DNA of 64,000 nt from a virus: positions 1,779-65,778 of IMG/VR virus record IMGVR_UViG_3300022217_000231; one strand, given 5' to 3'. This document shows positions 54,630 through 58,883 of this stretch, piece by piece. The number at the start of each line of letters is the position of its first letter. Position 1 is the stretch's first letter. The notes beneath the pieces were generated by a model. It was not told the origin of the DNA and did no database searches. It saw only the letters and a list, made by a program, of their open reading frames with translations. The translations under genes were made by a program, and so were the position numbers.

Positions 54630-54851
54630 TCATTTTGTCAAATATATTCTTTTTGCATTTACTAAAATAATCGCTGCCGCTTGTCTACTTTTAATTGGTT
54701 GCATATCTTCAACATCATTTAAATATTTTATAGCCTCTTCAAAATGATATGTATCTGAAACACATTGAGATGTCATATTGTATATATATTCAAATGCTTC
54801 TTCTAAATTAATAGTTCCATCTTTTCTACGATATTTATCTAAATTTTTCAT
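54630..54851 (-). CDS. Hypothetical protein
   Basis: 73-aa ORF. Confidence 0.5.
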   Translation of the reverse strand: MKNLDKYRRKDGTINLEEAFEYIYNMTSQCVSDTYHFEEAIKYLNDVEDMQPIKSRQAAAIILVNAKRIYLTK

Positions 54852-55166
54852 TCACCATACATCCTTAACTTCTTCTATAGAATCTATTTCTATATCATCT
54901 GCACAACATATGTCAGGTATATCTACTCTTTTTTCAATAACATTATCTGCGACATCCCAGGCATCATTTTCATTATATGCATCTACATAAAAATAATGAT
55001 TATTCATAGTAATCACATTAACTTTATATTTAACTAATTCACCATTTAATCCAGCCTCTTCTCTTATTGCTTTTTCTTCTTCAATATTTCGAAGTCTTTT
55101 TAATTCTATAATTTGTTCACTATTGCCAAATTCTAATTTTTTACCACATAGAAGATTTTCAGGCAT
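54852..55166 (-). CDS. Hypothetical protein
   Basis: 104-aa ORF directly downstream of the radical SAM C-half. Confidence 0.5.
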   Translation of the reverse strand: MPENLLCGKKLEFGNSEQIIELKRLRNIEEEKAIREEAGLNGELVKYKVNVITMNNHYFYVDAYNENDAWDVADNVIEKRVDIPDICCADDIEIDSIEEVKDVW

Positions 55167-55167
55167 A

Positions 55168-55956
55168 TTAACCTATAATCCTTTCTTCATCACTAAAACT
55201 AGACTTATATACTTTCATATCTTTAAGGTCTAAATAAGCGGAAAGAATTTCTGGTTCATAAAGAGAAATATCTAATTTTTTATTTCCTTTTAAATATGGA
55301 TGAAAATTGGCGCCAAAAGCTACTTGTTTAGTATCTAATTTTTCAACTTCAGATATTATATGTAGCGCTACTGAATCTAAATCATACATTAGTCCTTTAG
55401 CTCTACCTTGGGGCAATAAAGGTAAAAGAACAAAATATTCTATATCTTTATGATATAATTGATATAAAGCCTTAAACCTCTCAACATCTTGTTTAAAACT
55501 TAGTAATATATGAAAATTTGTTCTTACTCCATTTTCTATACAATCTTTAGTAGCATTTGTCCATTCATTTATTAAATGATTATGACAAGTAATAGCTACT
55601 CCACCACAATATTTTTTAGTAGCTTCAATAATTTCTTTTGTCATACCTATACCGTTAGTAGTATAATTTGGAGTAATTCCAAGATCATAAAAAGTTTTTA
55701 AAATTTCAATAAAATCTGGATGTTCATTTGGATTACCACCACCAATAGCTACTTGAAATGGTCGCTGATTTTCTGTCATTGGGCCATAGAAATTGTTTAT
55801 CTTTTCTATTACATTAGGATAATGCTCTTCTTGAATAGAGTTTTGGTAGCAGTTATGTACTAAAATATTGTTAGCAAAATAATTATGATAGTTTTTAATA
55901 CCTAAATTATATACAAATCCTTTATGTTTTCTTTTTGATATTTTTTTTATTTTCAT
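55168..55956 (-). CDS. Split-intein C-fragment (35 aa) fused to radical SAM C-extein
   Basis: True start ATG 55956 with GAGGGAG RBS; MKIKKISKRKHKGFVYNLGIKNYHNYFANNILVHN|CYQNS...QVAIGGGNPNEHPDF...NYTTNG. Confidence 0.9.
   Translation of the reverse strand: MKIKKISKRKHKGFVYNLGIKNYHNYFANNILVHNCYQNSIQEEHYPNVIEKINNFYGPMTENQRPFQVAIGGGNPNEHPDFIEILKTFYDLGITPNYTTNGIGMTKEIIEATKKYCGGVAITCHNHLINEWTNATKDCIENGVRTNFHILLSFKQDVERFKALYQLYHKDIEYFVLLPLLPQGRAKGLMYDLDSVALHIISEVEKLDTKQVAFGANFHPYLKGNKKLDISLYEPEILSAYLDLKDMKVYKSSFSDEERIIG
55852..55956 (-). mobile_element. Intein C-terminal splicing fragment (IntC)
   Basis: Block F VYNL.I...HNYFAN and block G ILVHN followed by +1 Cys. Confidence 0.9.
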
Positions 55957-56884
55957 AACATACTCCCTCTTTATAGTGACGGTGTTTATCAATTTTACCA
56001 TGACATGATGCACAGTAAGTGATTCCTATTTGTAAATTATCAAAATGATAATTTCTTATTCTGTGACATATTAATTCAAATTCTTTACTTTCAATATCTA
56101 TATCCTTTATAGATTTCCATATATTTAATTTTTGTAAGAAATTTTTAATAATATCTCTTAAAGGTTCTATATGATGTACTTCTAGCCTACCTCCTCTAAT
56201 ACTACATAATTGACAAGTATAATCATCCCTTTTTAAAATTTCTATATTCCAGCCAGCTAATCTATATCTTACAATGCCTCCTGCTCTCCCTCCACCTTTC
56301 CATCTAGGATTATCTTTACCAAATCTTTTCTTTATAGTACCAGTAACATAACCTCTTTTAATAGTTTCACTCATTTTTTTAACAGTTTCGGGATTTTTCA
56401 TAGGATTTTTATCCCCGGTCATTCGAATAGATTGTAAATGAGAAAGTTCCTCTTTAGTCATAGGAACTTTTGTTAAATTAGGTCCTCCTTTCCAATTTGG
56501 GTTTTTATCTCCTATTTTACTCTTAGATCGCAAATCACTACTTTTTGATTTACAATCTTCACATATATTTCCTTCTAATGTTCCAGTAGGAGATATATGG
56601 GTGATATTTTTTTCTACTTTTCCAGTGGGTTTCTTGCAATTCCGACAAAGAACTGTAATTTCTATTTTTTCTAGTTTTACATTTTTTCTCTTACATAAGT
56701 TACAATGAGTCCTATTTTGAGTTCCTATAAATGTTTCTTTACAATTTATACAGATTTTTTCATTTATTTTCTTTTTATAACGCTGTTTACCTAATGTTTT
56801 ATGGCATTCTTTATTAGAACAACATCGCGATCTTTTATCTCTGTTTTCATATTCTTCTTGACATATAACACATTTCTTTATCAT
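55922..56884 (-). CDS. Free-standing HNH homing endonuclease
   Basis: Zn-ribbon CxxC repeats, G.KNP.WKGG NUMOD-like repeats, RD.YTCQLC...G..LEVHHI...C..CH..ID. Confidence 0.88.
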   Translation of the reverse strand: MIKKCVICQEEYENRDKRSRCCSNKECHKTLGKQRYKKKINEKICINCKETFIGTQNRTHCNLCKRKNVKLEKIEITVLCRNCKKPTGKVEKNITHISPTGTLEGNICEDCKSKSSDLRSKSKIGDKNPNWKGGPNLTKVPMTKEELSHLQSIRMTGDKNPMKNPETVKKMSETIKRGYVTGTIKKRFGKDNPRWKGGGRAGGIVRYRLAGWNIEILKRDDYTCQLCSIRGGRLEVHHIEPLRDIIKNFLQKLNIWKSIKDIDIESKEFELICHRIRNYHFDNLQIGITYCASCHGKIDKHRHYKEGVCYENKKNIKKKT

Positions 56885-56932
56885 AATATATAATCCTTTG
56901 AGTTCCTTTATATAAGTATTTATATATTATGA
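56881..56932 (-). promoter_or_regulatory. Late promoter embedded in a start-codon-sequestering hairpin for the HNH gene
   Basis: 12-bp inverted repeat TCATAATATATA/TATATATTATGA covers the ATG; TATAAATA at 56917-56924 overlaps the 5' arm. Confidence 0.7.
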
Positions 56933-56992
56933 TTTTTACTTTGTATATGTTAAATTTTAATTTACTCCTTTATATAAAAAAATTTTATTATT

Positions 56993-57283
56993 TTATATAT
57001 CTAAGAAATAAATATCATCTATTTCTTTTATTTTGTCTGCTCTAATCCATCCTCTATTAAATGTAAATATCTTATGATTAGGAGTTATTTCTAAAATTTC
57101 GCCATTTTCTAATTCTATAATTATCAATTCTCCTGAATACTCTCTTTTATGTATTTGTTCTACCTCATTAGTCATAACTTCCAAATTTTTCGCATTTACA
57201 TTTAAAACTGTATCACCTACTACTATATCCTTTATTTTCTTTTTACCATCTATAGTAGAAATTAGACTATTTTCATTTAAACA
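56993..57283 (-). mobile_element. Intein N-terminal splicing fragment (IntN, 96 aa)
   Basis: Block A CLNENSLIST.DG.K.IKDI.VGD.V; block B EITPNHKIF; ends at a stop with no block F/G. Confidence 0.9.
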
Positions 57284-57454
57284 ATAATTACAAGCCCCGG
57301 AACAATAATTAGTAATTTTGACGTCATAAAATTCTGGATATTTTAATTCAACAATTGGTTTAGAACTATCATAGTACATTCTGATTGTCTTAAAATTATG
57401 ATAAACACTTCTATAATTTTCTTCTGGAAAACTTCTAGTTTTAATCATTTTCAA
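56993..57454 (-). CDS. Radical SAM N-extein fused to split-intein N-fragment
   Basis: YPEFYDVKITNYCSGACNY|CLNEN...; first two Cys of CxxxCxxC precede the intein. Confidence 0.9.
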   Translation of the reverse strand: MKMIKTRSFPEENYRSVYHNFKTIRMYYDSSKPIVELKYPEFYDVKITNYCSGACNYCLNENSLISTIDGKKKIKDIVVGDTVLNVNAKNLEVMTNEVEQIHKREYSGELIIIELENGEILEITPNHKIFTFNRGWIRADKIKEIDDIYFLDI

Positions 57455-57472
57455 TCCTTTATGTTTTAAATT

Positions 57473-57931
57473 TTAACAACTAATTTCTGTATTCACAAAA
57501 ACATCATTTAATCTACTTATTATATTCTTTCCTTCAAGTCCATCAGACTTAATTTTGATAGATATATCCTTTTGAAATCCTAACCCATCATTAACACTTT
57601 CATTTATATAATTAAATTCTTCTTCAGTAAGATCTTTAATAGGTATTTCATAATTTCCATGACATCTACCACAATTTCCTAGTTCATCTTCTTCTGTTTT
57701 AGTGATATCATATTCACAACAAGGACACCAAGCAGTTTCTTCTTCATTATATATAAATTCTATATCAAATATTTCATCTACCGTTTTATTAGAACCGGCT
57801 GCTTTTAACACACTAGTCAGTATTTCAGTCATAATATCTTTAGCATTATTACTTACACTTGCAAATATCTCTGTACTTGAATTAGTAATAACATCTATAT
57901 ATGAATGGAACGGAATTCTTATTTCTTTCAT
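57473..57931 (-). CDS. IDVITNSSTE-motif protein (paralogue 3, CxxC pairs)
   Basis: MKEIRIPFHSYIDVITNSSTEIF; CPCC and CGRC. Confidence 0.7.
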   Translation of the reverse strand: MKEIRIPFHSYIDVITNSSTEIFASVSNNAKDIMTEILTSVLKAAGSNKTVDEIFDIEFIYNEEETAWCPCCEYDITKTEEDELGNCGRCHGNYEIPIKDLTEEEFNYINESVNDGLGFQKDISIKIKSDGLEGKNIISRLNDVFVNTEISC

Positions 57932-57941
57932 TTTTCTCCTT

Positions 57942-58337
57942 TTAACCTAAATGATATCTTCGACAATTTGTAAAAAGATCTGCTATAGCCTCTTGTAATT
58001 CATAAGGTATAGAATTATCATCTGTACCTTCAATTAGTATATAATTTTTCTTTTTATTAGGAATGTTTAATCCCCACCCCTTATATTCTTTTAAAATGTC
58101 TTTTCCTAACATTGTTCTTATAGTTAAAATATTTTGTATTTTAACATGATCATCTAGGCCATGATAATGGTTATTTTCAGATCTATTGTATATACTCTTT
58201 AAATCTTTTAAGGTTTCTTTCAAAATATCAAATACCATTTTCTCTGATTTATCAGTATCACTTACAAATAATTCAGTAGAACTATTGGTAATTACATCAA
58301 TAAAACTATGCGTTTCTAATAAAAATAAATTTTTCAT
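57942..58337 (-). CDS. IDVITNSSTE-motif protein (paralogue 2)
   Basis: HSFIDVITNSSTELF; DDNSIPY. Confidence 0.7.
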   Translation of the reverse strand: MKNLFLLETHSFIDVITNSSTELFVSDTDKSEKMVFDILKETLKDLKSIYNRSENNHYHGLDDHVKIQNILTIRTMLGKDILKEYKGWGLNIPNKKKNYILIEGTDDNSIPYELQEAIADLFTNCRRYHLG

Positions 58338-58361: not shown

Positions 58362-58826
58362 TTAATAATTGTTTATGCCTTCCATTTCAAAAAGATTAAA
58401 AATACGACTAATTATGTTACTATATTCTTTCTCTTCTTTTTCAGTTAGATTCTTTGGTTTAATAATAAGTTCTCTTTCAAGCCCATATTCACAGTTATAA
58501 TAACTGTAGTATCTATCTGCCTCTTCTTCTGTAGGATTAATAGTACCATAACTTGCTTCAGTTCCACATCTAGGACATGGTTTACCTTCTTCTCTTACTA
58601 GATCTTCAGATTCCCCTCCACATACATAACAATCTTTCTCTTCATATTGAAGAGTAATATCAAAAATCTCTTCAACTTTTTTATCACCACCACCTAAAGT
58701 AATAATTTCCTGTAAAATATCTCTTATACCTTCAACTGAATTACTTGCAGCACTAACAAATATTTCAGTTGAACTATTTGTTATTACATCTATCGTACTA
58801 TGTATTGGAATTCTTATTTCTTTCAT
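58362..58826 (-). CDS. IDVITNSSTE-motif protein (paralogue 1, CxxC pairs); real start ATG 58826
   Basis: MKEIRIPIHSTIDVITNSSTEIF; CYVC and CPRC; AAGAGGG RBS; the track's upstream extension spans the promoter. Confidence 0.7.
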   Translation of the reverse strand: MKEIRIPIHSTIDVITNSSTEIFVSAASNSVEGIRDILQEIITLGGGDKKVEEIFDITLQYEEKDCYVCGGESEDLVREEGKPCPRCGTEASYGTINPTEEEADRYYSYYNCEYGLERELIIKPKNLTEKEEKEYSNIISRIFNLFEMEGINNY

Positions 58827-58854
58827 TATTAAGCCCTCTTTAATTTTTAATTTT

Positions 58855-58883
58855 ATTATATAATAATATATGAATAATGTCAA
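58855..58883 (-). promoter_or_regulatory. Perfect sigma70 promoter for the TNSSTE / radical SAM operon
   Basis: TTGACA-17-TATAAT. Confidence 0.8.

Follow-up and report, generated by a model that had tools for sequence, protein, structure and literature searches.

In this study, a 64,000-nucleotide stretch of viral DNA (positions 1,779 to 65,778 of the IMG/VR record IMGVR_UViG_3300022217_000231; hereafter the window) was analysed with respect to a fractured gene of a radical S-adenosylmethionine (SAM) enzyme, whose two halves carry the halves of a putative split intein and flank a candidate HNH endonuclease gene. The sample behind the window is a sediment metagenome, and the parent record (65,890 bp) is estimated to be 31% complete. 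The window has a guanine and cytosine content of 26% and encodes myovirus proteins, i.e. the large terminase, tail sheath, baseplate wedge and others.

Three consecutive open reading frames (ORFs) are located between positions 55168 and 57454, all on the minus strand. The first of these, the N-gene (56993-57448), encodes (i) an N-terminal extein (N-extein) of 55 amino acids (MIKTRSF...KITNYCSGACNY; 57284..57448), which is collinear with the uninterrupted homologues P0002-P0005 and with the DNA of locus L011, and (ii) an N-terminal intein half (IntN) of 96 amino acids (CLNENSL...FLDI; 56996..57283), closed by the stop codon TAA (56993-56995). The start of this gene is most likely the ATG at 57448 and not the TTG at 57454, because its homologues begin with MIK.R.FP. 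After a gap of 108 nucleotides (nt) comes a free-standing ORF of 320 amino acids (55922..56884), a candidate HNH-type endonuclease gene. The C-gene begins 35 nt inside the 3' end of this ORF, at the ATG at 55956, which follows its own ribosome-binding site (RBS; AGAGGGAG) and a spacer of six nucleotides; the mechanically called start of this gene (GTG at 56013) was rejected, and the RBS precedes the ATG. The C-gene comprises a C-terminal intein half (IntC) of 35 amino acids (MKIKKISKRKHKGFVYNLGIKNYHNYFANNILVHN, ending in VHN; 55852..55956), conserved in 46 split alleles, and a C-terminal extein (C-extein) of 227 amino acids plus stop codon (CYQNS and 222 further residues; 55168..55851). The whole inserted element, consisting of IntN, the spacer, the HNH gene and IntC, measures 1432 bp (55852..57283). 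The sequence-only reading of this DNA had placed an IntN of 96 amino acids after CSGACNY, an IntC of 35 amino acids before CYQ and an HNH gene between the halves. Both lengths and both junctions proved exact, and the gap does hold an ORF with HNH-type motifs, which overlaps the IntC gene.

A homology search with the C-gene yielded 1126 relatives, and 234 homologues could be classified as uninterrupted, split or intein-bearing. The word-indexed search with the N-gene returned 6 proteins, and the N-terminal halves were therefore taken from the loci themselves. Uninterrupted homologues (up to 72% identical) are continuous through the junction, reading C-x3-C-x-Y-CYQ; thus P0002 (72% identity in the C-extein) reads ...KITNYCSGGCDYCYQDSIQEDHYPNV... 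without interruption. In an alignment of 77 uninterrupted members, C49, C53, C56 and the Tyr that follows are invariant. Alignment of the window with L011, the DNA locus of P0002, revealed a clean in-frame insertion of 1432 bp (...TGT AAT TAT / TGC TAC CAA...), absent from the L011 allele. Since the uninterrupted homologues and L011 read through at this point, the element sits immediately 5' of the codon for the third Cys of the iron-sulfur cluster motif CxxxCxxC. The N-extein, ending in CSGACNY, holds the first two of these Cys residues (the Cys at position -3 being the second), and the C-extein opens with the third, which doubles as the +1 splicing nucleophile; the SAM-binding motif GGGNPNEHP lies further downstream. 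In the window, the full CxxxCxxC therefore exists only when the residues on both sides of the splice junction are read together (CSGACNY + C). That splicing would restore this motif, with the +1 Cys as the third ligand, had been proposed earlier and is borne out by the uninterrupted homologues and the invariant Cys residues; intein-less alleles, which had been suggested as something to look for, were found as well (e.g. P0002/L011). Activity of the enzyme would, we infer, strictly require trans-splicing. The AlphaFold2 model of P0002 (predicted local distance difference test score, pLDDT, 96.7) forms a typical radical SAM barrel. Its best-scoring PDB structures are SuiB, SkfB, BlsE, DesII, MoaA and viperin (E 7e-12 to 1e-6), and the uninterrupted homologues are annotated with Pfam PF04055.

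Both intein halves were recognised by family profiles, with matches far better than chance would give. IntN matched Pfam Intein_splicing (PF14890; E 5.5e-13) and TIGR01445 intein_Nterm (41.6 bits, cut-off 24.5), the latter beginning exactly at Cys1, and IntC matched TIGR01443 intein_Cterm (21.4 bits, cut-off 15.6) and positions 110-155, i.e. the C-terminal third, of PF14890 (E 2.2e-6). The block A nucleophile Cys1 directly follows ...CSGACNY. Block B is represented in IntN by T67-P-N-H70, and T(P/A)(N/D)H is kept in 5 other IntN halves (L001, L002, L007, L008 and L010). Block G reads ...ILVHN followed by CYQ, which corresponds to the terminal His-Asn and Cys+1; the 21 split alleles among the 120 closest homologues end in HN (18 alleles) or SN (3 alleles), with Cys next in all of them. 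The split position (96 + 35 amino acids) is canonical, being the site of the endonuclease domain in contiguous inteins, and sizes vary little within the family (IntN 93-96 amino acids; IntC 34-41 amino acids, mostly 35, with 41 as called in L015). Among solved inteins, NrdJ-1 (8ubs; E 1.9e-5) is the nearest to IntN by sequence, and the best solved match to IntC is the intein-like chain 6y75 (E 9e-4).

The two halves carry opposite net charges, computed as -6 for IntN, which has the acidic tail ...EIDDIYFLDI, and +8 for IntC, in agreement with the charge complementarity claimed in the sequence-only reading. At five related loci the charge of IntN ranges from -4 to -9, and that of IntC is +3 to +4 in four of them and -1 in L007. 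Prediction of the IntN + IntC complex gave a score of 0.94 in three runs (the best of 3 controls scored 0.01), a mark reached by 51 of 78 solved complexes and by 2 of 108 mismatched pairs. The predicted complex contains 190 contacts, 100% of them common to the runs, with a partner pLDDT of 92. It is thus predicted that IntN and IntC associate into one HINT fold; since split-intein complexes have already been solved, this prediction is to be read as a likeness to them and not as proof of binding.

The ORF lying between the halves matched three PHROG HNH families (589, 1271 and 8446) with E-values of about 1e-7. Its N-terminal part is rich in Cys and resembles zinc fingers; it also has NUMOD3-like GDKNP repeats and, at the C-terminus, a putative nuclease core of the form CxxC...EVHH...H...CxxCH..D. 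Across 10 homologues, C224/C227, V236-H237-H238, H280 and C291/C294-H295-D299 are invariant, and several N-terminal CxxC pairs and NUMOD3-like NP motifs are common to all 10. The full-length model is of moderate quality (pLDDT 77, predicted template modelling score 0.37), and its best Foldseek match is the SciA endonuclease of phage T5 (E 0.014, target template modelling score 0.51); a PDB profile search with the HNH alignment returned no nuclease. All seven of the other inspected loci that retain an intervening ORF have it between the halves of the fractured radical SAM gene. Homology to the HNH protein of the window was supported in the six that were tested (L002, L007, L008, L010, L014 and L015), with 33% identity and an E-value of 5e-43 for L002; the remaining ORF, at the P0056 locus, showed only a faint NUMOD3 match. 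No second copy of the HNH gene was found in the window's own record. In the 5' leader of this gene, an RNA hairpin pairing the RBS region and the AUG (56884-56882) was predicted at 56880..56933 on the minus strand. The fold (calculated for 56870-57000) has an energy of -15.7 kcal/mol and a z-score of -2.8, and 1 of 200 shuffles was equally good; in L002 and L008, hairpins also lie over or adjoin the start codon.

Taken together, the locus is very probably a fractured gene: a phage radical SAM gene into which a composite selfish element has been inserted directly before the third Cys of the CxxxCxxC motif. This element would combine a naturally split class-1 intein with a free-standing HNH homing-endonuclease gene. 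Under this reading, the two gene halves would be translated separately, acidic IntN and basic IntC would assemble into a HINT fold, and trans-splicing, catalysed by Cys1, the TxxH block, the terminal His-Asn and Cys+1, would join ...CSGACNY to CYQ..., giving an enzyme of 282 amino acids with an intact cluster motif. The HNH enzyme would cut intein-less alleles in co-infecting phages, and repair would copy the whole element into them (homing), with the hairpin over the RBS and the AUG possibly limiting translation of the nuclease. Splicing, the activity and target of the nuclease, regulation and the function of the enzyme are what we infer here.

Several results weigh against this reading. The HNH protein reached 18.9 bits with the Pfam HNH model, under the cut-off of 21.4, and its label rests mainly on the PHROG matches and the motifs, with a weak fold match. 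Searches of RNA sequencing runs found none carrying the locus. The octamer TATAAATA, located in the 5' arm of the hairpin (56917-56924) and considered as a T4-type late promoter in the leader of the homing endonuclease gene (HEG), occurs 42 times in the whole AT-rich window, with 42.1 occurrences expected from shuffles; because this is the chance frequency, the octamer was rejected and the hairpin alone is counted as evidence, and the regulatory model is weak as far as a late promoter is concerned. The prediction of the IntN + IntC complex may partly reflect memory of solved split inteins. Finally, the block-F position (F:4), usually Asp, is occupied by Asn (VYNLG, with VYDL as the consensus). 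Asn is also found there in most relatives and Asp in a few; since 6y75, the best solved match to IntC, has His at this position, the substitution was treated as a caveat and not as disqualifying.

The same substitution, together with the strong predicted binding of the halves, would suit a different explanation, namely that the intein halves are splice-dead and act as a non-covalent dimerisation module holding the enzyme fragments together, much as the mobE-split NrdA of phage Aeh1 forms from its fragments with no splicing. Fragmented phage enzymes working without splicing are documented (PMC3045599). However, dozens of alleles with extein identities of 45-55% preserve Cys1, TxxH, the penultimate His, the terminal Asn and Cys+1, and even the three Ser-Asn alleles retain the Asn and Cys+1. 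Moreover, an unspliced domain of 131 amino acids would sit inside the eight-residue cluster-binding loop. Such a module is for these reasons considered improbable, and a splicing-competent split intein is preferred.

Phage group I introns commonly carry HNH genes, which raises the question of whether the interruption is removed at the RNA level; alternatively, the arrangement could be an assembly chimera. Within 54800-57800, no Rfam family was found at E 0.1 (the lone row up to E 1 is a chance microRNA match), and the gap is flanked by protein-level intein halves with a conserved stop codon, RBS and start codon. As for the chimera, the same architecture was observed at eight other metagenome loci. 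A Logan contig of 17.7 kb, assembled from the probable source sample, spans the whole of 54800-57800 with zero differences; given this origin, it shares source data with the window and is not independent support. Both an RNA intron and a chimera are thus regarded as extremely unlikely, and less probable than any other explanation considered here. Separately, a part of the HNH gene (56116-56338) is matched identically by a 223-bp contig from another study's sediment metagenome (run X2), the only segment of the 3-kb stretch recovered from that run.

The locus is not singular: it belongs to a widespread metagenomic family with at least 46 such alleles. The 234 classified homologues comprise 181 that are uninterrupted, 46 that start with IntC at the site, 4 with contiguous inteins at the same site and 3 with an intein at a second site. 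Eight further split loci were inspected (L001, L002-4, L007, L008/9, the P0056 locus, L010, L014 and L015). In all of them, the N-gene and the C-gene are separate, IntN ends in a stop codon and IntC has its own RBS and start codon. The overlap of the HEG with IntC ranges from -10 to 35 nt. An atlas search showed the radical SAM family to be almost wholly viral. It seems to be confined to metagenomic data: tblastn with the C-gene against 50,697 GenBank phage records gave no match, and the HNH protein found just three partial matches in GenBank phage records, with a coverage of 28-29%.

The HEG is full-length in most split loci. In L010 (3104-4004) it is degraded, being annotated as two pieces of 38 and 159 amino acids with no start codon called, and the gap still resembles the zinc-finger N-terminal half of the HNH protein. 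In L001 (5851-6000) it is gone, with 150 bp left between the halves. These states fit what is expected of a cycle of invasion, decay and loss, in which the split intein stays because its removal needs a precise deletion. They also bear on the possibility that the radical SAM gene is dead, its halves being decaying remnants and the endonuclease alone mattering. The lack of the locus in the searched RNA sequencing runs would suit a dead gene. Against this, each half is an intact ORF equipped with an RBS and a start codon of its own, every residue invariant in the family is retained in the window's enzyme, and the C-extein keeps the 72% identity to the uninterrupted allele noted above. Split alleles persist with the HEG degraded (L010) or lost (L001), which argues for selection on the spliced product. 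A dead gene is accordingly rated as very unlikely, even more so than the non-covalent module.

Contiguous inteins at the same site (CxxxCxx/C...HN/CYQ) are present in four homologues, of which P0164 and P0270 carry large inteins and P0214 and P0231 mini-inteins. P0164 has a Pfam LAGLIDADG_3 match, LAGLIDADG-like motifs were seen in P0270 by eye only, and for the C-terminal part of P0231 (MKISKISRRHYKGKVHNIGTPPLHNYIANNILVHN) homology to the split IntC is evident. Unlike the window, each of these four is a single ORF, the large ones with an in-frame insert at the place expected for a LAGLIDADG domain and with no separate HNH gene. The second intein site of this enzyme family (PFQIA/C...HN/CGGGEP) lies in the SAM-binding GGE motif, with the +1 Cys in place of the usual Ile, Leu or Phe. 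It is occupied in P0132, P0143 and P0160; P0154, a fragment with the same C-terminal junction, was left unclassified. P0132 has a Pfam LAGLIDADG_3 match, and similar motifs were recognised by eye in the other second-site inteins.

A tree of the C-exteins (207 sequences, quick LG+G4 inference, with details tentative) requires at least 25 changes in intein presence, 13 of which are forced by well-supported branches, and the nearest neighbours of the window in this tree are all intein-free. Comparison of the window with the distant host L015 gave identities of 33% for the exteins, 66% for IntC and 41% for the HEG. The changes in the tree and the better conservation of IntC and the HEG than of the exteins point to a repeated horizontal spread of the element, with gains and losses being inseparable.

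Fractured genes of this kind were described by Dassa et al. in 2009 for gp41-1, gp41-8, NrdJ-1, IMPDH-1 and NrdA-2 (PMC2677866). Their hosts are enzymes of DNA metabolism (helicase, IMPDH, DnaE, NrdA/J, ligase and terminase) and their endonucleases are GIY-YIG or Vsr-like (PMC2677866). The locus in the window resembles them in all architectural features: (i) an N-extein + IntN gene, a free-standing endonuclease gene and an IntC + C-extein gene follow each other on one strand, (ii) the split lies at the canonical point of endonuclease insertion, (iii) the ORFs of the endonuclease and IntC overlap (6-69 bp there, 35 bp here), (iv) a hairpin is located upstream of the endonuclease start, (v) the halves have opposite net charges, (vi) variants lacking the HEG exist (gp41-7 there, L001 here) and (vii) the origin is phage or metagenomic. 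It differs in that the host is a radical SAM enzyme, the putative endonuclease is of an HNH type with NUMOD3-like repeats and zinc fingers, and the +1 nucleophile is also a metal ligand. The earlier statement that the locus matches the known gp41, NrdJ and IMPDH fractured genes thus stands for the architecture and not for the nuclease, the published ones being GIY-YIG or Vsr-like and not HNH. NrdJ-1 (8ubs), with an IntN of about 105 amino acids and an IntC of about 40, also derives from a fractured gene and is naturally split, its IntN being acidic and its IntC basic; its host is another one, and its sequence similarity to the intein of the window is low and partial.

Inteins in radical SAM enzymes are represented in NCBIfam by models for the Rv2578c family and for Tes, both in contiguous form. 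The N-gene aligned collinearly with the model of the intein-containing Rv2578c-family enzymes (NF038136, model positions 67-155) from extein residue 49 through the intein, which suggests that the intein of the Rv2578c family occupies the equivalent place in the cluster motif. The score was 30 bits with a cut-off of 700, so the protein is not a member of this family, whose intein, unlike that of the window, is contiguous and found in cellular genomes. In full-text literature searches, no report of a split intein within a radical SAM enzyme came up; a Campylobacter phage paper naming both treated them separately.

The N-terminal junction contains three Cys residues within eight positions (the ligands at -7 and -3, and Cys1), and the +1 Cys provides the third ligand. 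A similar arrangement is known from MoaA, which is a radical SAM enzyme. In the intein of Pyrococcus abyssi MoaA, a disulfide between Cys(-3) and Cys1 blocks splicing until conditions become reducing (work of Callahan et al. 2011, reviewed in PMC3922620 and PMC10663303). That intein lies in an oxygen-labile enzyme and has the same Cys(-3)-x-x-Cys1 spacing as the window (C-N-Y-C); it differs in being contiguous, archaeal and without a free-standing HEG. The shared spacing makes redox-gated trans-splicing a testable possibility: under oxidising conditions, a Cys(-3)-Cys1 or Cys1-Cys+1 disulfide might keep the halves as an inactive precursor. It may be speculated that trans-splicing serves as such a redox or iron-sulfur gate, so that an oxygen-labile enzyme would be assembled only in the reduced host cell, an idea that we consider rather doubtful. 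Were it true, the widespread retention of the split intein, also after loss of the HEG as in L001, would reflect a regulatory benefit and not a mere inability to lose it. With three Cys residues clustered at the junction, redox-gated splicing is open to direct testing.

Layouts of this kind were described in 2009, and that principle is unchanged by the present finding; the radical SAM host and the putative HNH nuclease family are new to it. A large and apparently undescribed family (at least 46 alleles) is thereby added to the short list of natural split inteins, and split inteins with Cys1 and Cys+1 are candidates for fast or orthogonal protein-ligation tools. In addition, a single site presents a series made up of a large intein with an in-frame LAGLIDADG domain, a mini-intein and split inteins that are accompanied by a free-standing HNH gene, by a decayed HEG or by no HEG at all, which may be used to study how fractured genes originate and persist. 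The family also illustrates that intein targeting of the best-conserved catalytic motifs extends to an enzyme class beyond DNA metabolism, and it has the second site in the GGE motif.

With regard to the enzyme, no NCBIfam equivalog came near its cut-off, and there are hints of a role in glycan or sugar-nucleotide modification. Sugar-nucleotide genes and genes for glycosyltransferases are found near the radical SAM gene in several unrelated loci (window 31350-53807; L011, L012, L007, L010 and L001), the recurring neighbours being GT25, GT2, epimerases/dehydratases, methyltransferases and Bac_transf, and a downstream GT25 gene is common to L011 and the window.

A further feature of the neighbourhood are small proteins with the N-terminal motif HSxIDxITNSS[ST]E, encoded beside the radical SAM gene. 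The window has three of them on the minus strand (57473-57931, 57942-58337 and 58362-58883). They occur in 7 of 9 related locus groups (L001, L002, L007, L008, L010, L012 and L014), in 1-4 copies each and beside both split and uninterrupted radical SAM genes. No such gene was seen in L011, where the upstream gene is cut by the contig end, and L015, which belongs to a subfamily of long enzymes, has no separate one. These proteins matched no family in Pfam, NCBIfam or PHROGs. The long subfamily (L015 and P0270) itself begins with a similar motif, FATNSSS, which P0231 lacks. Homology of the small proteins to this N-terminal domain was considered and found unsupported, as hhalign aligned only the eight-residue motif (probability 1.8%) and BLASTP of one paralogue against the N-terminal domain of P0270 gave nothing. 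The core ITNSS is invariant in 18 sequences, and possible roles of the proteins bearing it are as partners of the radical SAM enzyme or as its substrates.

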